Shown one piece after another: positions 1-19,348 of a stretch of DNA of 64,000 nucleotides. How positions within the stretch are numbered: position 1 is the stretch's first letter; each line of letters opens with the position of its first letter. A program made the position numbers and the translations under genes. Source of the DNA: Candidatus Levyibacteriota bacterium. GTDB taxonomy: Bacteria > Patescibacteriota > Microgenomatia > Levybacterales > UBA12049. Where the stretch lies: NCBI GenBank assembly GCA_049519175.1, contig JBEKQZ010000001.1:17021-81020 (forward strand). The letters are read 5' to 3'. The notes under the pieces are model-generated. The model searched no databases, was not told the DNA's origin, and saw only the letters and a program-made list of their open reading frames with translations.

Positions 1-1050
1 TATAAAACCGCCAGCGTTTACCCGTTTCTCTTTCAGCTGGTCTTTAACCGCGGCATAAATCTTAAGCAGACGACCGACAACCGGATTAATATCCTGCTTC
101 TTGGTATTGGGGGAGGGAGTCATGACGGCCCTAATTTGACCGATACAATAATTCTTGCAAGTTTGGATCAAAAGAATGATAAAGTAACTCTTGTTTCCAT
201 TCCCAGAGATCTTTGGTTTCCGGATATTAGTCAAAAAGTTAACGCAGCCTATGCAAATGGAGAAGCACGAAAAAAAGGAGACGGGTTAATAGAAGCTGAA
301 GCCGCGATGGAAAAAGTAACAGGGCAAAATATTGATTATGGGATAAGATTAGATTTTTCCGGTTTTGTTAAGTCAGTAGATATTGTTGGGGGTTTGGATA
401 TTAATGTAGATAATACTTTTGACGATTATCAATATCCGATTGACGGAAAAGAAGATGATTCCTGCGGACATACCCCGGCAGAATTACAGTCTTTAGCTAA
501 CACTCCCGAAGATCAACTTCCTCAAGTATTTCCTTGTAGATATCTACATGTCCATTTCAATAAAGGACTAAACCATATGGACGGACAGACTGCTCTTGAA
601 TTTGTCAGATCCAGGCATGCATCTCAAGCAATTGAAGCCAGCGATTTTGCTAGAAGTAAAAGACAGGAAAAAGTAATTAAGGCATTTAAAGACAAAGTGT
701 TATCGACGCAAACTTTAATCAACCCCGGGAAATTAATTGGCCTCTATAATACTTTGCAAACTAGTATCGACACCGATATTAAACAAGATGAATTCGACGA
801 CTTTATTCGGTTGGCCGAAAAAATGAGGAATGCCAAAATCCAAAGCGTCGTAATCGACCAGGGAGACGATACCGTTGGGCGTCCTGGTCTTTTAATCAAT
901 CCACCAATGACCAGCGACTATAATTATTTATGGACGTTGATTCCAAGAACGGGAAACGGAAATTTTGCCGAAATCCAAAACTATATCTCCTGCGAGATCG
1001 TCAAGGGAAATTGTGTAGTCTCTAAATCCCCCTCAGCGGCTTTCAAATAG
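1..1050 (+). CDS. LytR-CpsA-Psr (LCP) family cell-envelope glycopolymer phosphotransferase; 5' end lies upstream of the window
   Basis: Frame 1 is open from nt 1. Translation ...NRINILLLGIGGGSHDGPNLTDTIILASLD...VSIPRDLWF... carries the LCP core motifs, so the ORF-track Met at 136 is internal. Stop at 1050. Confidence 0.8.
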   Translation, partial: YKTASVYPFLFQLVFNRGINLKQTTDNRINILLLGIGGGSHDGPNLTDTIILASLDQKNDKVTLVSIPRDLWFPDISQKVNAAYANGEARKKGDGLIEAEAAMEKVTGQNIDYGIRLDFSGFVKSVDIVGGLDINVDNTFDDYQYPIDGKEDDSCGHTPAELQSLANTPEDQLPQVFPCRYLHVHFNKGLNHMDGQTALEFVRSRHASQAIEASDFARSKRQEKVIKAFKDKVLSTQTLINPGKLIGLYNTLQTSIDTDIKQDEFDDFIRLAEKMRNAKIQSVVIDQGDDTVGRPGLLINPPMTSDYNYLWTLIPRTGNGNFAEIQNYISCEIVKGNCVVSKSPSAAFK

Positions 1051-3172
1051 TGATTTTGTAAAGTCTTGTTTGCCCGCTTTCAAAAATAATTTTGCCAAGT
1101 TTTGCAAAAGTTTGTTCATTTAGATTAGGATATTTTTCTCTCTCCAGTTCGGAAACAACCACATAGGAAACATTATATTTTTTAAGCAAACTCTTTGCGA
1201 CAGAAAGATTTTGAGTAGTATATAAAGTTTGCACGTCGGCGATTCTTGGCGCGACAATGTCATAAGTTCCCCGCCAAAGCCATTCATGGACAGACCAACC
1301 GATGACTGTCGGCAGTCCGGTGTTGGCGGAAATTCTGGCGTAATCGGTATATGAGTCTCCGCTTGCTTCCAGAATCACGGGTTGCCCCTGGATATTTGCA
1401 TTTAGCCAATTTATCAGTTTATAGTCATTCGGATACAAAGTGGAGAGATAGGTTATCCCGTCCAGACTTTTATTTTTGGTTTGCAAGTTGTTGTAGTACG
1501 AGTTAATGGCAAAAACCGGATAAAGTATTAAAACCAAAGAAAGAAGCATTAAACTTACTAGAGAAAAGGGGATTAAAATTCTCTTTCTTTTTATGCCGGA
1601 AATTAATTTTACTAAGATATATCCGGAGGATAAAGAAAGCAAGATAAACGCTTCGTAAACCAGTTTAAACATTGTATTAGCGCGGTAATAATCCGGATAG
1701 ATATCTTTAACATAAATAAATTCGGGAATTAAAATTAAGATTGTCGATAAGGAAATTAACATTAAAACGAAGATATCATTTCTGGTGAATGTGTATTTTT
1801 TCTTAAATTTAAGGAAAAATAAAAATGAAACAACAAAGAAGTAGAAAAAACCATAGAGTAGAACAAATTGCCAAAAAGGCGTTCTCTGACAATGGTTGGT
1901 TTCAAAAAGAAAAGGTCCAAGTCTGCCGATGTTAGTTAGAAATGACGGAGCGCACAAAACGCCGATGCCCGAAACAAAAGGTTTAAAGTTAAGGCTAAAA
2001 GGTAAGGAGAAAACTATAAATCCGAAAAATATGATTAAGCTTTGTTTTAACAGCTGGTAAAAGGAATGCTGCGAAAAAAGCCAACGCTGTTCTTTGTAAA
2101 AATTGGAGACAAAAAGAAGCATCAATGTCAGTAAGAAATAGATCGGACCATCCCAAGCGTTAGTCATATACATTATGGCAAAAAGAAAGGCCAGAAGAAT
2201 TAAATTCCAGGTAAATATCTTTTTATTATTCAAAAGGACAAAAATAACCAAAATTGTTAAAAGAACAAAAGGAATGTCTAGGACATGTCCGTGCAAATCG
2301 GAGACAACAAAAGAATAAATGGGGAATTCGTGAATAGTATGGTAGATAAATCTGGTAGCGTTAGGATACCAGTAGCTATTCGGAAAGCTGAAAGGTAAAA
2401 AGGGCAATTGCCAAAAAGGAATTGGGCTATCCGCGGGAGTGTATGGCTTAAAAAAAGCGTAAATGGTGGTGAGGTTTCCGCCTAAGGTTACCAAAAGCGC
2501 GGGGATTAAACCGGCAATAACAGACTTGATAGAAACATTAATCTTCGCAAACAGGTTTGTACCGATCGAAAATGCGGCGGTAAACGTCAGAGCAAAAAGA
2601 GTAGCCAACATCAAATTATAGGTAATAAAGGAAGGAAGAAAACTCAACTTTGTCAAAACGGCAGTAACCAAATGCCCAAAGAAATAATAGTTAATGGCCA
2701 AAGGGGCATACCACATATCTTTAGGAGGGAAGTAGCTACTGCGAAGAATGGAATTTAAAAATCCAAAATCCATAAACTTTTCCAGTCCATGAATGTCGGG
2801 ATTATTAGCTCTAACATATGACCAACAAATGAGTCCTGCTAAAAAGATTACTTCTTCGAGTAAAAACATTCTGACATTTTTTTTCAAGATTGGCAGCAAA
2901 TGTTTTTTCTTCATAATAAAGACGCCGTAATTTATCAAGAAAAAGATAATTACAGATAAGAACACCGAAAATTCGGAGAACGGAAGAATTTTTAGAGTCC
3001 CCATCAAGAAGACAAAATAAGAAACTATTGCAATGCCGATTATTTTTGCAAAAATATAACCTTTATCTTTAAGCTCTGCAAAAACCGAAAACGTTAATGG
3101 AAGAAATGCCGTTCCGACCAAAAAGAAAACCAAGAACCATTTTAAAACATCTGTAATATCCGAAACTGACAT
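1043..3172 (-). CDS. Large polytopic membrane protein with >12 TM helices and a C-terminal extracytoplasmic domain; DUF2298/YYY-like putative polyprenyl-phosphate-dependent glycosyltransferase
   Basis: 709 aa. N-terminal half is almost entirely hydrophobic helices. C-terminal soluble domain ...QPVILEASGDSYTDYARISANTGLPTVIGWSVHEWLWRG... resembles the DUF2298 family. 17-nt gap to the downstream GT-C gene, same strand. Confidence 0.55.
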   Translation of the reverse strand: MSVSDITDVLKWFLVFFLVGTAFLPLTFSVFAELKDKGYIFAKIIGIAIVSYFVFLMGTLKILPFSEFSVFLSVIIFFLINYGVFIMKKKHLLPILKKNVRMFLLEEVIFLAGLICWSYVRANNPDIHGLEKFMDFGFLNSILRSSYFPPKDMWYAPLAINYYFFGHLVTAVLTKLSFLPSFITYNLMLATLFALTFTAAFSIGTNLFAKINVSIKSVIAGLIPALLVTLGGNLTTIYAFFKPYTPADSPIPFWQLPFLPFSFPNSYWYPNATRFIYHTIHEFPIYSFVVSDLHGHVLDIPFVLLTILVIFVLLNNKKIFTWNLILLAFLFAIMYMTNAWDGPIYFLLTLMLLFVSNFYKEQRWLFSQHSFYQLLKQSLIIFFGFIVFSLPFSLNFKPFVSGIGVLCAPSFLTNIGRLGPFLFETNHCQRTPFWQFVLLYGFFYFFVVSFLFFLKFKKKYTFTRNDIFVLMLISLSTILILIPEFIYVKDIYPDYYRANTMFKLVYEAFILLSLSSGYILVKLISGIKRKRILIPFSLVSLMLLSLVLILYPVFAINSYYNNLQTKNKSLDGITYLSTLYPNDYKLINWLNANIQGQPVILEASGDSYTDYARISANTGLPTVIGWSVHEWLWRGTYDIVAPRIADVQTLYTTQNLSVAKSLLKKYNVSYVVVSELEREKYPNLNEQTFAKLGKIIFESGQTRLYKITI

Positions 3173-3189
3173 AAGCTATTTTAGCAATT

Positions 3190-4848
3190 TTACTCTTTAT
3201 TTAAAATTTGTGTCAATTGCTGTGCGTTAAAATGCCCAATGTTTTTAAAAATTATAACTTTTGGATGATCGTAAACTTGGAATGTTTCCTCACTGGCGTC
3301 ATCATTAATTGTTAAACCGAAAATAGCAGGATAAGAAGTAAATTGCGCTACTTCCCGATAGCCTAATTTACCGGCAAATAATAATTTATAATATTTGCTG
3401 GTAATCGGATATTTATCGGTAAGATGAATTAAAGTTCCGTAAAGACGGCGACTATTAAAAATCAAATAACTGGAGCTACTTAAGTTTGCCGCTAAATATT
3501 CAACTTTTGCTGCATTATCGGCATCATACATTGCCAGCGACGTAATTTGGTATTGGCTAGGACTAAATTCCGCGATTGGAATCGGTAAACCATCATCCCA
3601 CTGCTCATTCAAAATTTTTGTCCCATAAGGAATAGTTTGGTAGATCCATTCGGATGCCAGGATTCTGGTCTGGGGTCTGGTATAAATTGAAAAAAATGCC
3701 AGGGCCCAAACTACAGTGGCCGTAACCGTGCCGAAAATTAATAAGTTTCCCAATAATTTCAGTTTCAATCTTATTCTCATTAGTAAAATTGCCGCTGAAA
3801 CCAAAAGGAACGGAATTATGGGAATCATATAGCGAACAAATTTGGTATGCCAAGAGCCGACGTAGAGAAAATAAATCAAAGGAAGCACTAAAAATACTAA
3901 AAGTTGTTTATCGCGCTTTTGAAGCGCTTCAAAGATAACAAAAACAAAACCGAAAATACAAAAAATTGCCGCTAGGCCGATTTGCCAGAAGAAATTATAA
4001 ATTTGAAAAAGATAGGGAATAGTATGGTCAAACTGCAAAGTATAAACGACCGGCAAAGAGCCGGTGGCAACTCCGGATTCATAGACCATTGATTCCATAA
4101 ATTTGCCAAAGTCAAGAAAGGTAAAGGGAGAAAAGATTGCAAAGACTGTAAAAGAGATTAACAAAAAGGCAATAATGTGAAGAATGATTTTTTTGAATTC
4201 ATGTTTTTTCCCAATCGTTGTCAGTAAATAAGCAAGGATTGGCATGACAATAAAAATTATCGCCGATGTTTTTGAAGCAATTCCTATCCCAAAAATAATG
4301 CCCAAAATTAATGTTATCAACCAACGGGATTTCTCTAAAAACAAAATTGAAAGAAGACAGAGTAAAACTCCAATCAAAGTGATTAAGCTTTCGGTGACTC
4401 CGAAATGAGCAGTTTGGATAGAAGTGACGGTAAAAGCGTATAAAATAATTGACAAGAAAGCAGTTTTCTTATCCGAAATTTTTTTGGCAAGAAAATATAA
4501 GGGAATTATTGTCAGCGTTGAAAATAGAGCGGAAAAAAATCGACCAATAAGATTAATGTTGGCCCAATTAGTTGTCCAACCGGCGTTTTTGGTTATAAAA
4601 GAAAGCGAATCTCCCGCCAGACGATAGAGATAAATGGAAAAACCGCCATAAGCAAAAAAATGCGGATTTAATTGCGAAAAAAAATGTATCTGTGAAACTG
4701 CGTTGGCGATATTTCTTTCGTCCGGATGGAAATAATTTCCCATGTCCCAGTTCAAATTATAAAAACGGAAAATTCCCGCCAAAAATGTTAAAGCAAGGAA
4801 GAAAAATAAGGTATTAAATTTTTTATCCAGGATTATTCTTTTAAACAT
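3190..4848 (-). CDS. GT-C fold membrane glycosyltransferase (ArnT/PMT-like, family 39/83 type)
   Basis: 552 aa, multi-TM. FHPDE acidic motif in the first extracytoplasmic loop. C-terminal soluble domain. Overlaps the upstream gene by 8 nt. Confidence 0.6.
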   Translation of the reverse strand: MFKRIILDKKFNTLFFFLALTFLAGIFRFYNLNWDMGNYFHPDERNIANAVSQIHFFSQLNPHFFAYGGFSIYLYRLAGDSLSFITKNAGWTTNWANINLIGRFFSALFSTLTIIPLYFLAKKISDKKTAFLSIILYAFTVTSIQTAHFGVTESLITLIGVLLCLLSILFLEKSRWLITLILGIIFGIGIASKTSAIIFIVMPILAYLLTTIGKKHEFKKIILHIIAFLLISFTVFAIFSPFTFLDFGKFMESMVYESGVATGSLPVVYTLQFDHTIPYLFQIYNFFWQIGLAAIFCIFGFVFVIFEALQKRDKQLLVFLVLPLIYFLYVGSWHTKFVRYMIPIIPFLLVSAAILLMRIRLKLKLLGNLLIFGTVTATVVWALAFFSIYTRPQTRILASEWIYQTIPYGTKILNEQWDDGLPIPIAEFSPSQYQITSLAMYDADNAAKVEYLAANLSSSSYLIFNSRRLYGTLIHLTDKYPITSKYYKLLFAGKLGYREVAQFTSYPAIFGLTINDDASEETFQVYDHPKVIIFKNIGHFNAQQLTQILNKE

Positions 4849-6127
4849 CTGTAAAAATTTCCCTCACAACTTTTTGTCCGTATTCAACAGCGTAATTTGT
4901 ACCTCTGTCCCAAGGATAAACTTGTTCCATGTTGGCCAAAAAAACATTTTTCATGGGAGTTCTAAATGGAGGAACTAACTTCGAATAATTGGTTAGAATA
5001 ATTGACTGGGCAAAAGGTGTCTTAAAAAGAGAATAGTCTATTAAGTTTTTTTTGTAGTTGGGATTCATTTTTAACAGGAATGGATGAAATAGTTTTAGAG
5101 TTTCCTCTTTTGTCATGGAGAAACGTTTTGAATCTTGGGGTAAATAATTGCCAAGATAGAGAAGGGACTCATTGTTATAATTTTTTTTGTCCATAAAATT
5201 TGTGTGTTCAACGACAGCCATAATGGGATTATTTGGGTCACAGATATTAAGCCAATATGTGTTGTCTGTTAAAAAAGGTTTGGTAAGTCTTAAAATCAGA
5301 TTTGTGGCTCCGAGACTTTTTAAATTTCCCAGACTTTTCCTATAATCTTTTGGAAGACTTGGCGCTATCTGCAAGAAGATAGTAGAGGGAACGGTGACGA
5401 TAACTTTATCGAACAATCCTTTTTTAGTTTTCCCGTTTTTGTTTTTAATTGTTAATAATATTTTGTCATCTTCTTCAAGTTCGGTAATTTCCGTCTCAAG
5501 CAAAACTTTACCGCCCTTTTTTTCTATTTCGTTTGTTATTTTTTTTGCAAAGTTTAAAAAACCTCCCTCGGGGTAAGCAAGAGTTGGGGTTCTTTTTATA
5601 ATTCTGGCCCAAAACCAAGCAAGAGAAATATTATTAGAATAAGGGCCGAATTTATTTTTAAAAAGAGGTTCCCAGATCATCCGGTATCCTTTTTCCCCCA
5701 TAGCTTTAGGTAAAAAACTTGCGGCATTAATCTTTTCAAGGGGTTTCCAAATAGGATTATAACGAAGAAATCCAACTGCAAGCCCCATACGCATGCGTTC
5801 TATTAAAGAAAGCTTAGGGAACAAAAGCACGCTCTTTGGAGAATCAAACTGAAAACTTTTTCCATTTACATATACAGAAGTTTTAGGCCGTTTAATTAAT
5901 ACATTTTGTCCAACTGCTTTAGCCAAATTCAAGATGAACTTATCATTTGTAAACCAATGATGATAGTGTTGTTCTAAGTTCCAATCCCATCCTGACTCTT
6001 TAAACCCGAGCACAAGACCACCGGGTATTTTTTCTTTCTCAAATACAATAACTTCATGGTCTTTTTTTAAGAGTTCAAGAGTAGCCGAGAGGCCGGTAAA
6101 GCCGGCGCCGATTATTGCAATTTTCAT
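4841..6127 (-). CDS. FAD-dependent flavoenzyme of the UDP-galactopyranose mutase (Glf/UGM) family
   Basis: N-terminal Rossmann motif MKIAIIGAGFTGL...EKEKIPGG. ...HHWFTNDKFILNL... matches the UGM HIFHTNDKYIW block, ...AVVEHTNF... matches RIIEHKHF, and there is a C-terminal Y/W-rich block. 4-nt overlaps on both sides. Confidence 0.5.
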   Translation of the reverse strand: MKIAIIGAGFTGLSATLELLKKDHEVIVFEKEKIPGGLVLGFKESGWDWNLEQHYHHWFTNDKFILNLAKAVGQNVLIKRPKTSVYVNGKSFQFDSPKSVLLFPKLSLIERMRMGLAVGFLRYNPIWKPLEKINAASFLPKAMGEKGYRMIWEPLFKNKFGPYSNNISLAWFWARIIKRTPTLAYPEGGFLNFAKKITNEIEKKGGKVLLETEITELEEDDKILLTIKNKNGKTKKGLFDKVIVTVPSTIFLQIAPSLPKDYRKSLGNLKSLGATNLILRLTKPFLTDNTYWLNICDPNNPIMAVVEHTNFMDKKNYNNESLLYLGNYLPQDSKRFSMTKEETLKLFHPFLLKMNPNYKKNLIDYSLFKTPFAQSIILTNYSKLVPPFRTPMKNVFLANMEQVYPWDRGTNYAVEYGQKVVREIFTDV

Positions 6128-7548
6128 AGAGCGGAAATGCCGCCGTGGGACAGAAGAAAAAGAAGTCCACCTGTTAATGTGACTATAACGCCGACAATTC
6201 CAACTGTGATTATAGAAGGATTCCCGGTTGGGGGCAATAGTTTACCGGTTGGGCTAATTATAATCCCCCCTTTAGTTTCTGTTTGAGCAGGCGAAATCGT
6301 TGGCGTCGTGGTCTTAAATGGCGCGGAAGTTACTGTTGGCGTTACGGTTGGAGACAAAATTACCGTTGGCGTGACCTTTGGCGTTAGTGTTGGACTTGGT
6401 GTTAAGATAACGCTTGGTGTTGGTGTCACGGATGGCGCTGGCGGATTAGTTTGTTGCCCCGCGGCATAAACCACAAAGGACTGAGTAATAGTTTGTAAAA
6501 TTCCAGAAGCATTTTTGGTAGTAATGGCAATGGTATGATTCCCGGGCGTTAGCGGAGTGGTTGGCCGATAACTCCAATCTCCGTTGCTGTCGGTGGTGAC
6601 ACTGGTTTCTACCGGAGTGTCCGAGTGGATGACAATGTCAACATTTTGTTCGGGTAAGCCGGTGCCTTTAAATAAAGGTTGTTGGTCGGTAAAGCTCTGG
6701 TTTTCTTTGGGCGTCAGTATCTCAGGAGCTGGTGATTGCGCCGAAGCAGTACTTTCAAATGACGGAAAACTCTCCAAACTTACAGGAACAGTAATTGGGG
6801 ACTGGCCGGTTGTAAAATCGTAGTTTTTAGAAAGCGTAATTGTCGGTACAGGATGAATTTGGCTAAATGACAGCGAAGCATTGGATGAAAGTGAATTGCC
6901 TATCGCCAGAATTTTTACGCCGGCATCTTGGGGGAAAGCATAGTAAGTAGAATTATCACCGGTTCTTAAAGAATTAAGCGGTAAAATGTAGCTCCCGTCA
7001 GATTTAACTAAAGTCGAAATTACTTGTGCGCCATCCATAGTGACATACACTAGCGCTTCGCTTGGCGCTGTTCCGTCGGGAAGAATTATGTTGCCCGTTA
7101 TCGGTGCCTGGCCCGGCGGATTTGCTAAGGCCGGACCCGTCGTAACCGTAAAAGGCTGACCGTTGTTTGAGTAGCTATCTTGTCCGCTGGTAATTGTAAA
7201 AAAGTATTGCGTCTGTTGGGACAAACGCTGGACGGTAATGTTATGAATATTATAATTTGCCAAATTGCCGCTTTGTTGGTCCCTGTCATCTAATGCCGAT
7301 TGTCCAAGACTCTGGTCTTTTCCGTAATTTAGAGAACCCGGCACCTGAGTATTTGTTGAATAAGAAACGGTAAAAGAAGTGTCGGTAATGTTAGTGATAC
7401 GGACATCGTTGGGCTGGTTGGAAAGGCTGGCATTTGATTTAAAGAGCGTACTTTGATTAGCCAAAAAAGTGGTTACGCCAACGCCAATAACGATAATAAG
7501 AATACCTAAAATGGTCGGAATTTTTTTGTTCCAAAAACTTTCTCTCAT
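6124..7548 (-). CDS. Secreted multi-domain surface protein (FN3-like, carboxypeptidase-regulatory-like and Ig-like domains, Pro/Thr linker) ending in an LPPTG sortase-type sorting signal plus TM segment
   Basis: N-terminal signal anchor. ITNITDTSFTVSYST (FN3-like). ITGNIILPDGTAPSEALVYVTMDG...SDGSYILPL (CarboxypepD_reg-like). TPTPSVILTPSPTLTPKVTPT linker. C-terminus ...KLLPPTGNPSIITVGIVGVIVTLTGGLLFLLSHGGISAL. Confidence 0.75.
   Translation of the reverse strand: MRESFWNKKIPTILGILIIVIGVGVTTFLANQSTLFKSNASLSNQPNDVRITNITDTSFTVSYSTNTQVPGSLNYGKDQSLGQSALDDRDQQSGNLANYNIHNITVQRLSQQTQYFFTITSGQDSYSNNGQPFTVTTGPALANPPGQAPITGNIILPDGTAPSEALVYVTMDGAQVISTLVKSDGSYILPLNSLRTGDNSTYYAFPQDAGVKILAIGNSLSSNASLSFSQIHPVPTITLSKNYDFTTGQSPITVPVSLESFPSFESTASAQSPAPEILTPKENQSFTDQQPLFKGTGLPEQNVDIVIHSDTPVETSVTTDSNGDWSYRPTTPLTPGNHTIAITTKNASGILQTITQSFVVYAAGQQTNPPAPSVTPTPSVILTPSPTLTPKVTPTVILSPTVTPTVTSAPFKTTTPTISPAQTETKGGIIISPTGKLLPPTGNPSIITVGIVGVIVTLTGGLLFLLSHGGISAL
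6290..6450 (-). repeat. Imperfect short tandem repeats (GTTGGCGT-like units) encoding the Pro/Thr linker of the LPPTG surface protein (approximate bounds)
   Basis: Reiterated gttggcgt(t/g)ac / ggtgttgg units on the plus strand, encoding TPT(V/L)-type repeats on the minus strand. Confidence 0.5.
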
Positions 7549-7886
7549 GGTGTTAAGCTCCCTTCGGTTGTTGCTTGTAGATTGCTTGTCGAATTTCCAC
7601 TTGGAACAGGTGTTGGTGTAACGATTACCGGACTGGCGGACGGTGAAGCGGGAACAGTAACATTTTGCACTGGGACACTTAATTCATAAATTGGCGAAAC
7701 TTTTTCTCTGTTTTTTAAGCTATCAATAACACCGGTGTCAAAGTTTGGCGTTATCGGTTCAATCTGCACGCTTAAAGGGACAGAAATGGTCGAGGTAATA
7801 ATATTATGATAAATACTAAAGCCAATCCAAAGAATGGCAAAAATAAACAATGGGACAAGAATTAATAAAATATCATTTCGTTTCAT
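7545..7886 (-). CDS. Small single-TM protein with a Pro/Ser/Thr-rich tail, in the pilN-pilO operon (possible PilP-like accessory)
   Basis: 113 aa. N-terminal TM LLILVPLFIFAILWIGFSI. ATGA-type 4-nt overlap with the downstream LPPTG protein gene, and directly abuts pilO. Confidence 0.5.
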   Translation of the reverse strand: MKRNDILLILVPLFIFAILWIGFSIYHNIITSTISVPLSVQIEPITPNFDTGVIDSLKNREKVSPIYELSVPVQNVTVPASPSASPVIVTPTPVPSGNSTSNLQATTEGSLTP

Positions 7887-7887
7887 T

Positions 7888-8487
7888 TTATTGTTTAAAG
7901 AAAACTGTGCCGTTAAGACTTAATTGCAAATTGCCATTTTCGGTTGACAAAATTATCGCTTTTAAAGCCACCACTCTTTGAAAATTGGCGATTTGACTCA
8001 AAAAATTGAGAATATTTGGATAGGTTCCTGTAGCGGTGATCGTAAAATCAAAAGAAGATTGTTTTTGAGAGGATGATTGTAAAAGGGTAACTTCCGAGAT
8101 TTGGAAACTGGTAAGTGTCAAAGATGTGCTGTTGGCGATAGATTGCGCTTCCGCCACGAAAAGTGGGATTTGTGTTGTGGTGGGGACTGCGTCATTAACA
8201 ATTGGGAGATCGGGCGAAAGATTAGTATATTGCTGTTGCAAGATAGCTAGGTCGTTTATTTTTTGCTGCAGCTTTTGCTGGACAAAATTACTGTCATCAA
8301 TTTGTTTTTGCAGATTAGCAATGGTCGAAAAAGTCGGATTAATGGCAAAAAGACCAAGTATAATGGCCGTAACTAGAGTTAGAACAATGGTGATATATTT
8401 TTGCGTCTTTTCCTGTTTAAGATCCGGAATTAACGCCAAATATTTTTCATATTGTTCTTTTTTTATGGCTTTAATTTGCAGACGCAT
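7888..8487 (-). CDS. pilO: Type IV pilus assembly protein PilO-like
   Basis: 199 aa. Short cytoplasmic N-terminus, one TM (ITIVLTLVTAIILGLFAI), a Q-rich coiled coil, then a ferredoxin-like periplasmic region. Overlaps pilN by 17 nt. Confidence 0.55.
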   Translation of the reverse strand: MRLQIKAIKKEQYEKYLALIPDLKQEKTQKYITIVLTLVTAIILGLFAINPTFSTIANLQKQIDDSNFVQQKLQQKINDLAILQQQYTNLSPDLPIVNDAVPTTTQIPLFVAEAQSIANSTSLTLTSFQISEVTLLQSSSQKQSSFDFTITATGTYPNILNFLSQIANFQRVVALKAIILSTENGNLQLSLNGTVFFKQ

Positions 8488-9031
8488 TTATTCCTCCTTG
8501 TCCTTTAAGATTAGCTGTAATTCCAACGGTAATAGTCGCTTTGGCGGTATCGTTTTGGATTTTGTCTAGACTGACACTATCAATGGCAGGATAGGCTTTT
8601 AATTTATCGATAAAATCAGAAAGGGCAGTAACCGAATTAACGGTGGCGGCGATTTGCGCTTGAGTTGGAGATAAATCAAGGGTTGTATAGGTAACTCCGC
8701 TTGGTGTCAAAGCAACAATGTCCTTAAATACTTTCAAGTTTTGCGTGGAAGCTTTGGAAACGGAAGAAATTAACGCTAACCGGTCTTGTAAATTTCGGTA
8801 TTTGCTTTCGCTAGCGCTTTGATAGGCAACAATTGCCTGCTCTTGTTTTACTTTTGTGCGTAAATCCTGGAGCTGGTTGTCAAGCGAAAAACGGTATAAA
8901 AAAGCGCCAAGCGCCACCAGTTCGACAAGAATTACTAGGGCCCGGCCAATAGTTAATACCCAGGAAACAATCAAATCTAGCGTTTTATTCTTATTTTCCA
9001 ATAAATTAATAGAGGCAGAAAACTTCGCCAT
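8471..9031 (-). CDS. pilN: Type IV pilus assembly protein PilN
   Basis: 186 aa. N-terminal SINLLE (the conserved PilM-binding INLLP-type motif), a single TM, then a coiled coil. Confidence 0.65.
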   Translation of the reverse strand: MAKFSASINLLENKNKTLDLIVSWVLTIGRALVILVELVALGAFLYRFSLDNQLQDLRTKVKQEQAIVAYQSASESKYRNLQDRLALISSVSKASTQNLKVFKDIVALTPSGVTYTTLDLSPTQAQIAATVNSVTALSDFIDKLKAYPAIDSVSLDKIQNDTAKATITVGITANLKGQGGINASAN

Positions 9032-9040
9032 ACTAACTTT

Positions 9041-9069
9041 AGTCTATTGGTTTTTGAGGCTTTTGTCAA
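9041..9069 (-). promoter_or_regulatory. Sigma70-type promoter for the pilN-pilO-surface-glycan operon (TTGACA-17-TAGACT on the minus strand)
   Basis: On the minus strand: cTTGACAaaagcctcaaaaaccaaTAGACTaaagttagt ATG(pilN). Lies between the rpsT stop and the pilN start. Confidence 0.45.
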
Positions 9070-11105: not shown

Positions 11106-12851
11106 ATGTCTTTTAGTAACATCCGTAATTTTGCCATCATCGCTCACGTTGACCATGGAAAATCGACGTTGGCCGACCGCTTTTTGGAAATCACCAACAC
11201 AATTCAAAAGGATAAATTAAAAGAACAATTCTTGGATCAAAACCCGATTTCTAGAGAACGTGGCATCACCATTAAATTGGCACCGGTTCGGATGAAATAT
11301 GCAGTTGATGGACAGGAATATATCCTAAATTTAATTGACACTCCTGGGCACATGGATTTTTCCTACGAAGTCTCCCGGACTCTGGCGGCTTGCGAAGGAG
11401 CAATCCTTTTGGTTGATGCCACCAAGGGAATTCAGGCCCAGACGGTAGCGCATTTCAACGCGGCCAAGAAAGAAAACTTAACCATTATTCCGGCAATTAA
11501 TAAAATCGACCTTCCCACCGCCAACACGGAAGAAGTCACTAAAGATTTAATTGAGACTTTCGGGTTTAAACAGGAAGAAATTTATTATGTTTCGGCTAAA
11601 ACCGGAGAAAACACCAGACAGCTTTTGCAGGCGGTGGTGAAAAAAATTCCAGCTCCTAAAGTAAATGACAACGCGCCTCTGCGCGGCTTAGTGTTTGACG
11701 CGGTTTTCGATGAACACCGAGGCGTAGTTATTTTTACCAAATTATTTGATGGTAGTGTTAAAAAACAAGATAAACTGGAATTTATCCAGAATAAAACTAA
11801 AGTTGACGTGTCGGAAGTAGGATTTTTCTCGCCCTTTTTAATGTCCAAAGAGGAATTAACCGCCGGAGAAATCGGCTATATTGTCACCGGCTTAAAAGAT
11901 ATCCGCAGAACCCGGGTCGGAGACACAATCACAGCCCAAAATTTAAAAGGCAAAATGCAAAACTTAAATGTTCAGCCGTTGCCTGGATACGCAACGCCAA
12001 AGCCAATGGTCTTTTTTGGCGTTTACCCGCAAACTTCCAACGAATATGTTCACTTACGGGAAGCGCTGAATAAGCTATCACTCAATGACGGCTCATTAAC
12101 TATTTCCAATGAGTATTCGGCGTTTTTGGGCAGTGGCTTTCGGGTGGGATTTTTGGGACTTTTACACGCGGAAATTGTCAAAGAAAGATTAACCAAGGAA
12201 GAAGGCGTGGAGCCGATTTTAACGATGCCCAAAGTTTTATATGAAGAAAAAGATGGAAAGATGCTGGAGCCCTACATGATCTTAACGATTTTTGTTCCTG
12301 CCAGTTTTGTCGGCGCAGTGATGACAGTGGCACAAAATAAAAAAGGCACTCTTTTAGGCATCTCTTATCATAAAAACAACGCTATTTTGCAATATGAGAT
12401 GCCTTACTCGATGTTTATCCGCGGACTTTCGCCGGATTTAAAAAGCGCCACCCAAGGTTTTGCCAGTCTAGATTATGAAATCACCGGTTACAAAGAGGCG
12501 AGGTTGGTAAAAATGGACGTTCTTATTAACGGTAGCCCGATTGATGTTTTGTCAGAGCTGGTTTACGAAGATGAAATGAGTTCTGTCGCCCGCGAAAAAA
12601 CGGAAAAATTAAAAGAACATCTGCCAAAACAACAATTTAAGCAAATCATTCAGGCGGTGGTTGGGGCAAAAATCTTGGCCAGAACGGAAATTTCTCCTTA
12701 CCGCAAAGATGTGTTAGCCAAAATGTCCGGCGGAGACAGAACTCGGAAAGATAAATTACTGGAGGCGCAGAAAAAAGGAAAGAAAAAGATGGTTAATGTT
12801 TCAAAAGTACAGATTCCCCAGAAGGCATTGCTGTCGATGCTCAGAAGCTAG
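11106..12851 (+). CDS. lepA: Elongation factor 4 (LepA)
   Basis: NFAIIAHVDHGKSTLADRFLE G-domain. 581 aa, with the LepA-specific C-terminal domain. Confidence 0.95.
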   Translation: MSFSNIRNFAIIAHVDHGKSTLADRFLEITNTIQKDKLKEQFLDQNPISRERGITIKLAPVRMKYAVDGQEYILNLIDTPGHMDFSYEVSRTLAACEGAILLVDATKGIQAQTVAHFNAAKKENLTIIPAINKIDLPTANTEEVTKDLIETFGFKQEEIYYVSAKTGENTRQLLQAVVKKIPAPKVNDNAPLRGLVFDAVFDEHRGVVIFTKLFDGSVKKQDKLEFIQNKTKVDVSEVGFFSPFLMSKEELTAGEIGYIVTGLKDIRRTRVGDTITAQNLKGKMQNLNVQPLPGYATPKPMVFFGVYPQTSNEYVHLREALNKLSLNDGSLTISNEYSAFLGSGFRVGFLGLLHAEIVKERLTKEEGVEPILTMPKVLYEEKDGKMLEPYMILTIFVPASFVGAVMTVAQNKKGTLLGISYHKNNAILQYEMPYSMFIRGLSPDLKSATQGFASLDYEITGYKEARLVKMDVLINGSPIDVLSELVYEDEMSSVAREKTEKLKEHLPKQQFKQIIQAVVGAKILARTEISPYRKDVLAKMSGGDRTRKDKLLEAQKKGKKKMVNVSKVQIPQKALLSMLRS

Positions 12852-13993
12852 AGAGCGAATAAAAGAACAGCTCCGATTAGTGTGATAACAGCTCCGATAG
12901 TCCCAACTTGCACAAGATTAGTCGGACCGGTTGGCGGAAGTGGACTGACCTGCGCAATTACCGGAGTAGGTGTCGGTGTAGGCGTTGCGGTCGGAGCAGC
13001 CACAACGGTTGTAGTTCCTCCACCGGCGGTAATAGTGACAGAGCAATTAGCAGAACTACTCACGGCATTGTTGGCGTCGGTTAAGGTTGCGGTAGCAGTA
13101 TATGTGCCGGCGGTTGTATAGGAATGAGATTGTAAAACGCTGACGGAATTTGTACCTATTCCACCGGAGCCTGTAATATCTTGAGATTGACTGTCACCAA
13201 AATTAAAAGTAACTTTACTAATAGTGGAATTGCTACTTGAACCGGTAACGGTTAAATTCGTAGCCAAAGGCACTGCCCCGGAAGTGTTGTCGGCTGTCAG
13301 ACTTGAACAGGTTGGGGCGGCGCTAGACTGTGTCGAGGTCGGTGTCGGCGTTAAGGTCTCCGTAGGCGTCAACGTTTCTGTCGGCGTAGTTGTCACATTT
13401 GTGCCGGCAATTATCGTTAAAGCGGCTGGATTCGCGCTGGCCAAAACATTTTCGCTGGACTGGTCACTTGTGCCCAAAGATAAGACCTGTGTATCGTTGC
13501 CAAAGGTAATTTGAGTTGGACCAGAATCTGTCGTCGCAATCGCTTTAAAAGTAATAGTACCAATAGTCGTTGTCTGTTGCACTACTTGAGAGGGATCCCC
13601 GCCGGCAGAAAGAGTAATGGAAATTGTTCCGTTTCCGTAGGTTGGCCCCTGTAAAATATCCGGTAAAACATGCGTTGGGTTGACGGTAGTATTGGTGACG
13701 ATAAGACCCGCTCCGTCCGTTGCCAATTTTGTGCTGTCATACATGATTGTAAATTTGACGTAAGAAACCAGATTAGAGGTGGTAGCGGTAGCCGGATCAA
13801 CTTGAATGTTGAGATTGACATCGTCGCCAACGTGAATTGGCGCTTGCGATGCCGGAAGAATGCTGATCGTCGTCGCTGCCACGGCCGAGCTCTTAGTTTT
13901 TTGTTGTTGTTGGACCAAGAAGACGGTGACCGGAATTGCAACGAGCAAAACTACAATAAAGCCAATTAAAAGAATTTTCTTCATTGAAGACAT
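12848..13993 (-). CDS. Secreted surface protein (cohesin-like domain, Pro/Thr linker, PKD domain) ending in an LPPTG sorting signal plus TM segment
   Basis: Signal anchor MSSMKKILLIGFIVVLLVAIPV. Cohesin-like N-domain. TPTETLTPTETLTPTPTS linker. PKD-like ...HSYTTAGTYTATATLTDANNAV.... C-terminus ...VSPLPPTGPTNLVQVGTIGAVITLIGAVLLFAL. Convergent 4-nt overlap with lepA. Confidence 0.7.
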   Translation of the reverse strand: MSSMKKILLIGFIVVLLVAIPVTVFLVQQQQKTKSSAVAATTISILPASQAPIHVGDDVNLNIQVDPATATTSNLVSYVKFTIMYDSTKLATDGAGLIVTNTTVNPTHVLPDILQGPTYGNGTISITLSAGGDPSQVVQQTTTIGTITFKAIATTDSGPTQITFGNDTQVLSLGTSDQSSENVLASANPAALTIIAGTNVTTTPTETLTPTETLTPTPTSTQSSAAPTCSSLTADNTSGAVPLATNLTVTGSSSNSTISKVTFNFGDSQSQDITGSGGIGTNSVSVLQSHSYTTAGTYTATATLTDANNAVSSSANCSVTITAGGGTTTVVAAPTATPTPTPTPVIAQVSPLPPTGPTNLVQVGTIGAVITLIGAVLLFAL

Positions 13994-16157: not shown

Positions 16158-16988
16158 ATGAAAAAAGTATTTTACATTCTTTCCCCAGTTGTTTTAGTCG
16201 TTTTAATTTTTGCCGCGATTTTACTTTTTCTAGCACAAAACAAAGGTAAAGGTGCTTTACAAGTAACCTCTGTACCGGTGGCCAATGTTTATTTAGACGG
16301 GAAATTATTGGGACAAACTCCGCTTTGTCAGTGTGAATTAAAAGATATGTTAACGGTTGGCGATTACACTTTAAGATTAGTGCCAACTCAAGGAGGATTT
16401 GAACCGTTTGAGCAAAAAATTACCATTGCGCCAAAAGTGCTAACAGTAGTTGACCAAACTTTTGCTGGACAGGGACTAGGTAGCGGCAGCGTTATCAATC
16501 TAACTCCGCTTACGGATGCTAAAGATATGCAGCTTTCAATTGTTTCGTTTCCGGGCAACGCGCAGGTTTTTCTGGATGATAATCCGGTGGGACAAACACC
16601 GCTTCTTTTGCAAAATATTACCGAGTCGGACCATGAATTAAAACTTTCGAAAGTTGGTTATAAAGATAAAATTATCAGAATCAAAACTACGCCCGGTTAT
16701 AAACTGGAAGCCTTAGTTTTTTTAGGCATTAATCCGGACGTTGCCGCCGCCACCGCTTCTGCTGCTTCGGCTTCAGCCAATTTACCGGTGGCCAAAGTTC
16801 TCATCTTACAAACTCCGACGGGTTTTTTAAGAGTGAGAGACCAGCCGTCTTTAGGTGGAAACGAAATAACCCAGGTAAAACCGGGGGAAACTTATCAACT
16901 GCTCGACGAGCGGACGGATTGGTATCAAATAAAACTCACCAATGGGCAAACTGGTTGGATTAGCTCCGAATATGCCCAAAAACAATAG
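16158..16988 (+). CDS. Secreted protein with two PEGA-like repeats and a C-terminal bacterial SH3 (SH3b) domain
   Basis: Signal anchor. VTSVPVANVYLDGKLLGQTP and IVSFPGNAQVFLDDNPVGQTP (PEGA-like). C-terminal ...RVRDQPSLGGNEITQVKPGETYQLLDERTDWYQIKLTNGQTGWISSEY (SH3b-like). Confidence 0.6.
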   Translation: MKKVFYILSPVVLVVLIFAAILLFLAQNKGKGALQVTSVPVANVYLDGKLLGQTPLCQCELKDMLTVGDYTLRLVPTQGGFEPFEQKITIAPKVLTVVDQTFAGQGLGSGSVINLTPLTDAKDMQLSIVSFPGNAQVFLDDNPVGQTPLLLQNITESDHELKLSKVGYKDKIIRIKTTPGYKLEALVFLGINPDVAAATASAASASANLPVAKVLILQTPTGFLRVRDQPSLGGNEITQVKPGETYQLLDERTDWYQIKLTNGQTGWISSEYAQKQ

Positions 16989-16990
16989 GA

Positions 16991-17938
16991 TTAACTGGGG
17001 TTGATGAAGTAAACTAAAGCAATTACCAAAATAGTCCAAATTACAACAGTGACCAATAATGGTCGGTCGGATAAAAGCACTTTCTCCGGACTTTCACCCT
17101 CATTTTTTTCATAAATATCCTGTAAATAACGCATTAGCCCATAAACGACCGGAATAATAGTTATCATCAACCATTTTCTTTGGAAAAAAGCCGGCAAGAA
17201 ATCCGGCATTAAAACGCCGATTGAAAGTTTAAACCCGGTCGGATTTTCCAAAAAAGTAAACAGCGCATAAGAAATAAAAGTCGAGGTGGCAAAAATAGAA
17301 GCATAAACATCCAACAGCCTTTCGGAATAATGAGATAAAGATTGTCTGGTAGCGGCAAGATCAAAATTTTTGGTGCCCGATAAAAGGGTGAGTTCGCTTC
17401 TTCGTTTACCAATTGCCAAGAAAAGCGAAATCGAAATTGTCGTTAACAAAAGCCAGACCGAAATATGGTAACCGCTGGCAAATTCTCCGGCATAAACCCG
17501 CAAAATATAGCCGGCGGCAATTAAAAGGATGTCAATAACCGCCACACTTTTTAAGAATGAGGAGTACAAAAATTGCATGACAAGATAGACTATTACTAAA
17601 ATGAAAAACGCGGGAGTAATCACTGCTGCCACGGAAAGAGAAACTATTATCAAGAAAGCGGCGATGATGATTGCCAGAAGAACCGGAACGTCCCCGTGAG
17701 CGATTGGTCGAAATCTTTTAAACGGGTGCAGTTTATCTTTTTTCGCATCAAAAATATCATTAATGACATAAGTGGCGCTGGATAATCCGCAAAACACAAA
17801 AAAGCCCAAGATTACTTTGGGCAGAACTGTTGGATCAAAAAGCTCGCCGGTAAAAGTTATGGCGGCAAAGATAGCCAAATTTTTAATCCATTGTCTTGGC
17901 CGCAAGAGCCGAAATATGTTATATGCTAGTTTCATCAT
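16991..17938 (-). CDS. UbiA-family prenyl-phosphate phosphoribosyltransferase (decaprenyl-phosphate 5-phosphoribosyltransferase-like, Rv3806c type)
   Basis: 315 aa, 8-9 TM. LRPRQWIKNLAIFAAITFTGELFDP...YVINDIFDAKKDKLHPFKRFRPIAHGDV (NDxxDxxxD motif plus the downstream RPIAxG block typical of DPPR synthase homologues). Confidence 0.6.
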   Translation of the reverse strand: MMKLAYNIFRLLRPRQWIKNLAIFAAITFTGELFDPTVLPKVILGFFVFCGLSSATYVINDIFDAKKDKLHPFKRFRPIAHGDVPVLLAIIIAAFLIIVSLSVAAVITPAFFILVIVYLVMQFLYSSFLKSVAVIDILLIAAGYILRVYAGEFASGYHISVWLLLTTISISLFLAIGKRRSELTLLSGTKNFDLAATRQSLSHYSERLLDVYASIFATSTFISYALFTFLENPTGFKLSIGVLMPDFLPAFFQRKWLMITIIPVVYGLMRYLQDIYEKNEGESPEKVLLSDRPLLVTVVIWTILVIALVYFINPS

Positions 17939-18995
17939 CGACGCGTTTTAGTAAAAATTGTAAGAAAAGTATAGTACCTCCGGCTAGAATTACCAGCATG
18001 ATAATTGCGAACAACTTTCCTTTGCTAGATAAGACTAGCGATAATGCGCCTAATATAGCAGAAATAGTCCAATAAAACAACGCAATCCGCCTTTGCCCAA
18101 AACCAAGGCTCAACAAGAGATGATGAAGATGTTTTTTGTCATGCCAAAAAGGAGATTTGCCGGATAAAATTCTTCTGGCAATTGTTATAAAACCGTCGGT
18201 CATCGGCACTCCCATTACCAAAATTGCCGTGGCCAATTTTGCGCCGGAAAGAATTGAAGCAACTGCCAAGATTAAATAAATGGCGGTTGCGCCGTAGCCG
18301 GGGAAAATTTTTGCCGGGTAAAAATTGTAGATCAAAAAACCTAAAGACGCGCCGGCAACAATAAAAGACAGCGCCGCCGCTGTGGCACTGGTTTGGTCAA
18401 GATGAGAAAAGCGAAGACTTAAGATGCCGATCACAATCGCCGAAATGGCCACAATTCCCGGCATCTGTCCGTCAACGCCTTTACTCCAATTTAACATATT
18501 CATGACCCAAACAATCCAAAGAACAGCGATTAAATCACCAGCAAAACTAATCACGGCGCCGTTAAGAAAGGGAAGTTGTAAATGACTAAAATTCAAAATC
18601 CCACCTAAAGGATTGGTAATAAAAGGAACGTTGGCGCCCATAAAAACGACGAAAACAGCGCAACAAATATTAATGACAAATCTTAAATATGGGGAAAGGT
18701 CGTATTTATCATCGACAACGCCGATTAGAAGCGAAGCGAAAGCCGCAATTAAAGTCGCAATAATTACTTTTGTCATTGGCAAAAAGAAAATACTGGCGAC
18801 TAACACTCCTATAAAAAGCGGAATTCCTCCGCCCCTCGGGATTATTTTTTCATGAATTATCGCGGGGTGCTGGTGCTTTTTAGGATCGTCAACAATATCC
18901 AGTTTTTTAAGAGCAACAAGACTTAAGGGCGTTGCGATAGCTGTGATTAGAAAAGAGAAAATTAAAGGGAAAATTGTAATATTTAAATTAAACAT
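17919..18995 (-). CDS. GT4-family polyprenyl-phosphate N-acetylhexosamine-1-phosphate transferase (WecA/TagO-like; MraY superfamily)
   Basis: 358 aa, about 10 TM. ...IPRGGGIPLFIGVL..., ...VGVVDDKYDLSPYLRF..., ...NMLNWSKGVDGQMPG.... Lacks the MraY-specific KxGTPTMGG block. Confidence 0.65.
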   Translation of the reverse strand: MFNLNITIFPLIFSFLITAIATPLSLVALKKLDIVDDPKKHQHPAIIHEKIIPRGGGIPLFIGVLVASIFFLPMTKVIIATLIAAFASLLIGVVDDKYDLSPYLRFVINICCAVFVVFMGANVPFITNPLGGILNFSHLQLPFLNGAVISFAGDLIAVLWIVWVMNMLNWSKGVDGQMPGIVAISAIVIGILSLRFSHLDQTSATAAALSFIVAGASLGFLIYNFYPAKIFPGYGATAIYLILAVASILSGAKLATAILVMGVPMTDGFITIARRILSGKSPFWHDKKHLHHLLLSLGFGQRRIALFYWTISAILGALSLVLSSKGKLFAIIMLVILAGGTILFLQFLLKRVDDETSI

Positions 18996-19348
18996 TAACT
19001 AATTTGCAGGATGATTTTAATAATAAAAAGAAAATTCATAAATGCCAAAATAAGCGTCACTGCGGCTACCATTCTGGCGATTAACGGACTTTTATTATAA
19101 ACAATTGAGGTAAAAATAAGGTTAAAAATAAATATCAAACCAAAGATAATGGTCGGAATAAAAATTCCCGGTGTTGCCGTAAGCCGGTCATTGCCCCAGG
19201 GAAGTTGGTTAAAGATGGGAATAAATGGAGGAAGGTTATGGTAACTTAGCAATATATATACAACAGTAAAAAGTGTTAACAGAAAACTAATCAAAAACCC
19301 ACGTAGTGCCAATTTATCGGAAGCGATATTATTAATAAAGTTTTTCAT
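18995..19348 (-). CDS. Small 3-4 TM membrane protein (possible GtrA-like flippase accessory)
   Basis: 117 aa, hydrophobic. Sits between the WecA-like and GT-C genes with 1-nt and 17-nt overlaps. Confidence 0.45.
   Translation of the reverse strand: MKNFINNIASDKLALRGFLISFLLTLFTVVYILLSYHNLPPFIPIFNQLPWGNDRLTATPGIFIPTIIFGLIFIFNLIFTSIVYNKSPLIARMVAAVTLILAFMNFLFIIKIILQIS

Follow-up and report, generated by a model that had tools for sequence, protein, structure and literature searches.

A conserved Levybacteria operon links pilus and surface-protein genes with a PRK07233-family flavoenzyme and a putative lipid-linked-donor glycosylation module

INTRODUCTION

Bacteria of the candidate phyla radiation (CPR) are attached to other cells and possess very small genomes, which makes surface chemistry, almost uncharted in these organisms, central to them. 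Here, we analyzed a stretch of 64,000 nucleotides (nt) from a Candidatus Levyibacteriota bacterium (GenBank assembly GCA_049519175.1, contig JBEKQZ010000001.1, positions 17,021 to 81,020 of the forward strand), hereafter the window, which begins with an envelope operon. This operon is kept across Levybacteria and links two uncharacterized families, the flavoenzyme family PRK07233 and DUF2298, to ArnT/PMT-like glycosyltransferases of the GT-C type, a LytR-CpsA-Psr (LCP) ligase, PilN/PilO, and a surface protein. A first-pass annotation of the window had seen a UDP-galactopyranose mutase (UGM, or Glf) in the flavoenzyme and most of the enzyme classes of actinobacterial arabinogalactan assembly in the surrounding genes. 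Our results place the flavoenzyme elsewhere and point to a module that may glycosylate targets outside the membrane from lipid-linked donors.

RESULTS

Layout of the operon

The operon lies on the minus strand and starts with a pilN-like gene (8471..9031 in window coordinates, used throughout), followed by a pilO-like gene (7888..8487), a small gene for a membrane-anchored 113-aa protein (7545..7886), the gene for a 474-aa LPPTG surface protein (6124..7548), the gene for the 428-aa flavoenzyme (4841..6127), a PMT_2-type GT-C gene (3190..4848; 552 aa), and the gene for a 709-aa DUF2298 protein (1043..3172). On the plus strand, an LCP gene (1..1050) is an open frame from base 1; its 5′ end extends beyond the window edge, and the N-terminal membrane anchor of the protein falls outside the window. 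All operon genes except that for the 113-aa protein match curated family models above cutoff.

The junctions are tight. The pilN and pilO genes overlap by 17 nt, the small and surface protein genes by 4 nt, the surface protein and flavoenzyme genes by 4 nt, and the flavoenzyme and GT-C genes by 8 nt; the DUF2298 gene follows after a 17-nt gap and converges with the LCP gene, with which it shares 8 nt at the 3′ ends. The first-pass annotation had joined six minus-strand genes by overlaps of 4 to 17 nt. This holds for every junction except that between pilO and the small gene, which is a 1-nt gap (TAA-A-ATG); the spacing ahead of the DUF2298 gene and the convergent LCP gene are confirmed by the coordinates.

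Several operon starts are preceded by Shine-Dalgarno-like purine runs, and a promoter-like site lies upstream of pilN (9069..9041). The best sigma-70-like match of the region (TTGACA-18-TAAAAT, 11/12) is found at 3216..3187 on the minus strand, within the 3′ end of the GT-C gene and just upstream of the DUF2298 gene, for which it could act as an internal promoter. We treat such sites as hints only because neither promoter counts (31 versus 26±5 in shuffled sequence) nor terminator counts (13 versus 9±3) exceed chance. The GC content at 2001..6000, which covers the DUF2298, GT-C, and flavoenzyme genes, is 0.34 to 0.36, compared to ∼0.42 for the whole window; this could reflect the codon bias of membrane proteins or a separate history of the genes.

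The flavoenzyme belongs to the PRK07233 family

Over residues 10 to 424, the flavoenzyme matches the Pfam family Amino_oxidase (PF01593; 1.1e-22, 81.4 bits versus a cutoff of 19.8), and it scores 388.9 bits with the NCBIfam model PRK07233 (NF005560, “hypothetical protein”; cutoff, 252). PRK07208, HpnE, protoporphyrinogen oxidase (PPOX), and carotenoid desaturases (CrtI) appear among its NCBIfam matches below threshold, with HpnE, PPOX, and CrtI far below; the PPOX model TIGR00562 gives 49.5 bits versus a cutoff of 97.85. We aligned 29 diverse family members from Microgenomates and Chloroflexota, with 39 to 63% identity to the window protein. All of them match Amino_oxidase, and G7, G9, G12, and E30 of the dinucleotide fold are invariant.

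The first-pass annotation had called this protein a Glf/UGM-type enzyme, but the window protein has no match to GLF (PF03275) even at an E value of ≤10, the families listed for the 29 members do not include GLF, and the UGM model TIGR00031 is missing from the best 25 NCBIfam matches. When the protein is compared to the PDB with HMMER, UGMs align to residues 2 to 93 only, whereas the monoamine oxidases MAO-A and MAO-B align over residues 3 to 426; the resemblance to UGM is strongest in the N-terminal ∼70 to 90 residues. Fold comparison values are nearly equal for phytoene desaturase (PDS; 31.8), the PPOX enzymes of Bacillus subtilis (31.6) and Myxococcus xanthus (31.2), and Trypanosoma cruzi UGM (31.0, 391 residues aligned), with Deinococcus radiodurans UGM at 27.4; therefore, UGM and the other superfamily members are not distinguishable by fold alone.

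Profiles separate them better. As controls, we used Escherichia coli Glf (identical to 1i8t_A) and B. subtilis HemY, a PPOX with a full-length match to 3i6d_A. With hhalign, the family aligned to PPOX with a probability of 97.8% in local mode (E value, 7e-13; 379 columns) and 99.1% in global mode (1e-17; 406 columns), compared to 94.4% (9e-8; 297 columns) for UGM in local mode. The HMMER family profile likewise favors PPOX, with 41.4 bits versus 28.0 bits for UGM.

Individual residues give a mixed picture. The His-loop histidine of UGM, H56 in E. coli and H60 in Klebsiella pneumoniae, stacks on the isoalloxazine (PMC3624792). It is present in the flavoenzyme as the invariant H56 (HYHHWFTNDK versus GAHIFHTNDK), and this likeness is probably what led to the UGM call. 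The diphosphate ligands of UGM, which in K. pneumoniae are R174, R280, Y185, and Y314 (PMC3624792, Table 3), are not kept in a remote hhalign alignment of moderate reliability: E. coli R278 is replaced by Ala304, Y181 falls into a 9-residue deletion, and R170 corresponds to Ile176, next to the invariant R175. Arg, Lys, His, Asp, Trp, and Tyr are prominent among the family invariants, which include W47, W49, E52, H56, H57, R175, R179, H308, W406, D407, and R408; this composition would suit a polar phospho-sugar ligand better than a hydrocarbon.

We rejected UGM membership on the basis of hidden Markov models, profile controls, and ligand residues, and PPOX or carotenoid-desaturase function on the basis of genomic context together with the subthreshold equivalog scores. 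Neither the “protoporphyrinogen oxidase” name found in databases nor the UGM label is supported, and the galactofuranose (Galf) predicted from the latter falls with it. Judged by its sequence, the flavoenzyme is a member of a distinct uncharacterized family, PRK07233, within the amine oxidase/PPOX/PDS/UGM superfamily and not a Glf ortholog; it may carry out UGM-like non-redox chemistry on another sugar. A literature search on PRK07233 found nothing functional.

GT-C, DUF2298, and LCP proteins

The product of the GT-C gene is a polytopic membrane protein that matches PMT_2 (PF13231; 61.4 bits versus a cutoff of 26.1). Residues P42-D43-E44-R45 of the first loop, part of an HPDER motif, are invariant in the family, and among solved proteins, ArnT comes closest in a profile search (5ezm; E value, 0.0022). 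The protein is thus a GT-C glycosyltransferase, as first annotated, but the suggested Emb/AftA likeness does not hold: the Pfam match makes it ArnT/PMT-like, and no Arabinose_trans or AftA Pfam family was found at an E value of ≤0.01 for either this protein or the DUF2298 protein.

The DUF2298 assignment stands, with 337 bits for PF10060 and 517 bits for TIGR03662 (Chlor_Arch_YYY; cutoff, 300). The YYYFGH motif is invariant at Y162, Y163, F165, and G166 and nearly so at Y164. There is no sequence match in the PDB and no detectable similarity to STT3/AglB. An AlphaFold2 model (pLDDT, 75.8; loops poorly modeled) was compared to the PDB with Foldseek, and the top 10 matches are all GT-C enzymes or domains, with probabilities of 0.99 to 1.00 but low TM values (0.26 to 0.46 for full-length matches); they include AglB (whole protein and C-terminal globular domain), DPY19, AftA, ArnT, and Pmt4. 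We predict from this model that DUF2298 is a glycosyltransferase of the GT-C fold carrying a globular domain at its C terminus. DUF2298 and the PMT_2-type proteins are kept as separate GT-C families because their profile-profile probability is only 31%, over the C-terminal halves. At residues 625 to 635, in the C-terminal domain that structurally matches AglB C-terminal domains, DUF2298 has an invariant GW-VHEWLWRG motif, which may resemble the WWDYG motif of STT3/AglB. Our literature search found nothing functional on DUF2298.

The LCP ligase call is upheld by matches above cutoff to PF03816 (1.6e-30) and TIGR00350 (89.9 bits; cutoff, 62.3).

Pilus and surface proteins

PilO matches PF04350 (2.4e-12; 47.6 bits versus a cutoff of 22), and PilN, with the N terminus SINLLE, matches PF05137 (5.9e-6; 26.7 bits versus 22.8). 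The rpsT gene lies upstream of pilN, and the operon is not adjoined by genes for pilins, PilB/C/M, or a prepilin peptidase. The 113-aa protein has no Pfam or NCBIfam match.

The surface protein consists of an N-terminal transmembrane segment, FN3/Ig-like domains, a Pro/Thr-rich stalk, and a C-terminal LPPTG motif followed by a hydrophobic segment. Big_13 is matched above the Pfam cutoff (2.1e-8); Pur_ac_phosph_N and fn3 matches in the N-terminal part are below theirs. Among the C termini of 38 homologs, 11 have [LI]PxTG, 11 have a looser Px[TAS]G-like pattern, and 16 have no pattern; a transmembrane segment is present in most, often with a short basic tail. The tail of the window protein (SHGGISAL) contains no Arg or Lys.

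The presence of an LPPTG surface protein in the operon is thus confirmed, and the window also contains a sortase gene (50590..51321, minus strand; 243 aa; PF04203, 2.1e-25; C-terminal TLVTC motif). A second LPPTG surface protein with a transmembrane segment is encoded at 12848..13993 on the minus strand (381 aa; LPPTG at residue 352, hydrophobic tail). It has a Pro/Thr-rich linker and a PKD_4 match (3.5e-5; 24.2 bits) under the Pfam cutoff of 27. The sortase is a candidate enzyme for both proteins, the second of which suggests a small repertoire of sortase substrates. Base 51321 is common to the sortase gene and the 3′ end of a neighboring gene for a 783-aa protein (together, 50590..53672 on the minus strand); the 783-aa protein matches Baseplate_J-like (1.2e-7; 31.8 bits versus a cutoff of 21.1) and has no LPXTG motif at its C terminus.

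Gene order across Microgenomates and Chloroflexota

More than 7,000 homologs of the flavoenzyme were found at an E value of <1e-10, mostly in Levybacteria; their source names are “protoporphyrinogen oxidase,” “amine oxidase” (JGI), and “NAD(P)/FAD-dependent oxidoreductase.” We compared 86 loci, including 80 GTDB species representatives (the best 80 of 597 found). The latter come from Levy-, Roizman-, Woese-, Gottesman-, Davies-, and Blackburnbacteria (44 to 64% identity) and from Chloroflexota (∼39 to 45% identity), where Anaerolineae, Thermoflexus, Ardenticatenales, and Caldilineaceae are represented.

The order pilN-pilO-small gene-surface protein-flavoenzyme is kept in 35 Levybacteria/Microgenomates loci of the 86, 32 of them among the GTDB representatives. 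In all 35, a homolog of the 113-aa protein is encoded between the pilO and surface protein genes, and the surface protein gene always follows the pilN-pilO-small gene set in related loci. Usually, one or two PMT_2-type GT-C genes come next, and then the DUF2298 gene and a convergent LCP gene; the abutting convergent ends of these two genes recur in at least eight loci. A MurJ gene lies upstream of the operon in divergent orientation in relatives that keep the order, and the MOP-superfamily gene beside the operon in the window also scores as MurJ (261 bits versus 235). Because gene order and convergent ends recur across loci, the operon is not an assembly artifact, a possibility that the first-pass annotation had left standing; the operon and its overlaps are real and conserved. 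Nor is the gene set as unexpected for a CPR genome as had been thought: Levybacteria carry this operon as a standard feature, and pathways with polyprenyl-phosphoribose and GT-C are already known to be widespread (PMC11127046).

Some of these loci have an epimerase gene of the short-chain dehydrogenase/reductase (SDR) type and a 196-aa gene ahead of the DUF2298 gene. In some relatives (as in L004, 9274..17024), genes for a PNPOx-like 141-aa protein, a GalE-like 345-aa SDR, and the 196-aa protein stand between the GT-C and DUF2298 genes; all three are absent from the window. Operons of the Levybacteria type also occur in many GTDB records titled “uncultured Gammaproteobacteria bacterium” (more than six loci), and protein P0110, named Methylomirabilota, likewise comes from such an operon; the taxonomy of these records is probably wrong.

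Beyond the Levybacteria arrangement, the flavoenzyme gene is followed by one or two GT-C paralogs in most related loci, and in ∼55 of the 86 loci, a GT-C, DUF2298, or DUF2298-like gene lies within 6 kb of it. The flavoenzyme-GT-C pair occurs without pilN/pilO in Woesebacteria, Gottesmanbacteria, and other Microgenomates, and three Gottesmanbacteria loci have the order flavoenzyme-UbiA-GT-C-GT-C, with a homolog of the UbiA-family protein described below directly between the flavoenzyme and GT-C genes. In Chloroflexota, a gene for a flippase-like LPG_synthase_TM protein is directly upstream of the flavoenzyme gene and, in most loci, a UDP-glucose dehydrogenase gene is directly downstream; 10 loci have the complete trio. 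Wider neighborhoods in this phylum are heterogeneous (LacI, DUF711, PNPase, TPR, ABC-2) and uninformative beyond this core. Genes for GT2, GT1, NDP-sugar epimerase, and methyltransferase proteins also recur as neighbors. In four loci from Roizmanbacteria and related metagenome-assembled genomes (L040 to L043), a gene for a 516-aa fusion of VKOR and dihydroorotate dehydrogenase (DHODH) takes the place of the GT-C gene, directly after the flavoenzyme gene in L040 and L042 and after at least one gene in L041 and L043; in one Woesebacteria locus, the fusion gene lies upstream of the flavoenzyme homolog. Our literature searches turned up no account of this association between a PRK07233 flavoenzyme and GT-C/DUF2298 genes, which spans two phyla.

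A second glycan locus in the window

A second set of glycan genes, all on the minus strand, lies 11 kb away in another operon. It encodes a 315-aa UbiA-family polyprenyl-phosphate phosphoribosyltransferase (DPPR/PPPRS type; 16991..17938), a WecA/MraY-family GT4 enzyme (17919..18995), a 117-aa membrane protein (18995..19348), a PMT/PMT_2 GT-C enzyme (19332..20816), and a membrane GT2 enzyme (20819..22315), with the GT4, GT-C, and GT2 assignments taken from Pfam/NCBIfam. The UbiA-family protein, which has no fused PRP domain, passes both decaprenyl-phosphate phosphoribosyltransferase models (NF008977, 237.1 bits versus 234; NF008978, 235.5 bits versus 207) and is the probable source of a lipid-linked pentofuranose donor. 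Because the score of the GT4 protein with the WecA model (96.8) is far under the equivalog cutoff (326), we assign only the WecA/MraY family. Of the arabinogalactan-like enzyme set first proposed for the window, the UbiA-DPPR, WecA/MraY-family, GT-C, GT2, and LCP members are thus retained, whereas Glf, Emb/AftA, and the arabinogalactan-like conclusion itself are not. The UbiA/WecA-family locus is directly adjoined by a plus-strand gene (16158..16988) whose product, secreted or membrane bound, has PEGA and SH3_3 domains.

The rest of the window consists of housekeeping genes. A literature search on DPPR synthase in CPR bacteria found nothing functional.

DISCUSSION

Proposed role of the operon

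With a probability of about 0.5, we read the locus as a conserved Levybacteria envelope operon that joins a pilus/surface-protein module to an extracytoplasmic glycosylation module using lipid-linked donors. The first module would comprise PilN-PilO, the small membrane protein, and the sortase-type Ig-like surface protein; the second would comprise the PRK07233-family flavoenzyme, the ArnT/PMT-like GT-C, and the DUF2298 GT-C, with the convergent gene supplying the LCP ligase. Cytoplasmic enzymes would load sugars on polyprenyl phosphate, with the UbiA-type enzyme making polyprenyl-phosphate-ribofuranose from phosphoribosyl pyrophosphate (PRPP). At the cytoplasmic face, the flavoenzyme would change the lipid-linked sugar, by oxidation, epimerization, or a related reaction, or would change its carrier. 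After flipping, the GT-C enzymes would transfer the sugar outside the membrane to a wall polymer later fixed by LCP, to the Pro/Thr-rich stalk of the surface protein, or to pilins. We infer the donor, the acceptor, and the flavoenzyme substrate; what the data show are the gene identities, the folds, the conserved synteny, and that the flavoenzyme lies outside Glf. The earlier idea of a furanose may survive by way of PRPP-derived polyprenyl-phosphate-ribofuranose, not by way of Glf and Galf.

The likeness to an established pathway of PPPRS, flippase, and GT-C leads us to view the locus as a lipid-linked-donor glycosylation module, and synteny supports this view: in two phyla, the flavoenzyme gene has glycan or lipid-carrier genes as neighbors. 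Several points weigh on the other side. The closest sequence relatives of the flavoenzyme have tetrapyrroles, isoprenoids, or amines as substrates rather than sugars. About one-third of the loci, in Roizmanbacteria and many Chloroflexota, have no GT-C gene nearby and have heterogeneous neighbors. The PPPRS gene is not part of the operon, and DprE1, DprE2, and a phosphoribose phosphatase were not seen among the window open reading frames (ORFs) that were scanned against models or read, several of them only as translations. The synteny could come in part from the clustering of essential genes in small genomes rather than from one pathway.

A more specific version, which we consider tentative and rather unlikely, would make the flavoenzyme a new lipid-linked-sugar enzyme, either a non-orthologous substitute for DprE1(/E2) or a polyprenyl-phosphate-linked pentose/hexose mutase or epimerase, that diversifies the donors of PMT_2-type and DUF2298 GT-C enzymes in Microgenomates and Chloroflexota; DUF2298 would then be an AglB-like transferase acting on sortase-anchored surface proteins, pilins, or a wall polymer. 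If the flavoenzyme does modify a lipid-linked sugar, it would represent a new enzyme class for furanose/polyprenyl-phosphate glycobiology, and DUF2298 would for the first time be placed in a functional context; otherwise, the operon is an ordinary conserved glycosylation locus. All operon genes with family calls belong to known families, two of them uncharacterized, and the operon is standard for the clade.

Alternative explanations

The flavoenzyme might instead tailor the lipid carrier, acting as a CrtI/PDS/RetSat-like saturase or desaturase on polyprenyl phosphate to provide, e.g., a dolichol-like carrier for the GT-C and DUF2298 enzymes. We hold this to be possible but improbable: the invariant residues, strongly polar or aromatic, would be unlike those of hydrocarbon-tunnel enzymes, the prokaryotic polyprenyl saturases known so far are geranylgeranyl-reductase family members, and our literature search found no link between phytoene-desaturase-like enzymes and polyprenol reduction.

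The joining of pilN and pilO to the module, kept in 35 loci, would be explained if the module glycosylated type IV pilins. Pseudomonas aeruginosa TfpW is a GT-C enzyme that arabinosylates pilins through a DPA (decaprenyl-phosphoryl-arabinose)-type pathway (bioRxiv 10.1101/2020.04.19.049825; PMC11127046), and the PPPRS-like gene in the window is consistent with a similar O-glycosylation with pentofuranose from a polyprenyl-phosphate donor. However, the operon is adjoined by rpsT and not by the pilus genes named above, other Microgenomates keep the flavoenzyme-GT-C pair without pilN/pilO, and the failure to see DprE1/E2 among the ORFs scanned or read counts here as well. We regard such a TfpW-like system as distinctly doubtful.

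It is very unlikely that the flavoenzyme is a housekeeping PPOX-like enzyme or amine oxidase, unrelated to glycans, in a conserved gene block. The database names, PPOX as the best profile match, and the VKOR-DHODH neighbor in Roizmanbacteria, which is redox rather than glycan related, would fit such a role. On the other hand, no heme-pathway genes were found among the window ORFs scanned or read, the 8 nt shared with the GT-C gene are conserved, glycan and lipid-carrier neighbors occur in two phyla, and PRK07233 is a model separate from PPOX. Just as poor are the prospects of a UGM that makes UDP-Galf for an arabinogalactan-like polymer ligated to peptidoglycan by LCP, since the loss of diphosphate ligands and the missing GLF match are compounded by the lack of any Emb/AftA-family match and by the fact that UDP-Galf is a donor for cytoplasmic Leloir transferases, not for GT-C enzymes.

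Comparison with known systems

Compared to bacterial UGMs, the window flavoenzyme is 60 residues longer, and its gene is coupled to a GT-C gene, not to Leloir Galf transferases. It shares only 13 to 18% identity with PPOX, phytoene desaturase, and monoamine oxidase, and its genomic context is glycan, not heme or carotenoid. The GT-C enzyme resembles ArnT and PMT in its PMT_2 domain, multiple transmembrane segments, and loop-1 Asp-Glu motif (HPDER), but it is very distant from ArnT and occurs as one or two tandem paralogs. For the DUF2298 model, the best PDB matches include archaeal AglB and its C-terminal globular domain.

By analogy, the closest established framework is extracytoplasmic pentofuranosylation, which is related to mycobacterial arabinan and to TfpW pilin arabinosylation. 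Established experimentally in other bacteria, with Citrobacter youngae O1/O2 as an example, this pathway comprises a PPPRS, a MATE flippase, a GT-C, and auxiliary epimerases, namely, a GalE-like SDR for xylofuranose (Xylf) or DprE1/E2 for arabinofuranose (Araf) (PMC11127046). Our window shares with this system and with the mycobacterial decaprenyl-phosphoryl-ribose (DPR)/DPA systems a UbiA-type PPPRS, several GT-C enzymes, and a MOP-superfamily gene beside the operon; relatives add a GalE-like SDR gene within the operon and, in Gottesmanbacteria, contiguous flavoenzyme-PPPRS-GT-C genes. The differences are that the GT-C enzymes are of the PMT_2/ArnT-like and DUF2298 types rather than GT136 or Emb/Aft, that neither a PRP/PAP2 phosphatase nor DprE1/DprE2 was found among the window ORFs scanned or read, and that no described system of this kind includes an amine-oxidase-fold flavoenzyme.

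For the surface protein, the parallel is the LcpA-GspA-SrtA pathway of Actinomyces oris, in which a sortase substrate undergoes LCP-mediated glycosylation (PMC6381275). There, too, glycan genes accompany those for LCP, a sortase, and an LPXTG surface protein; in the window, the sortase gene is 43 kb away, and the surface protein lacks the classical basic tail. By analogy with A. oris, the surface protein of the window may be glycosylated as well.

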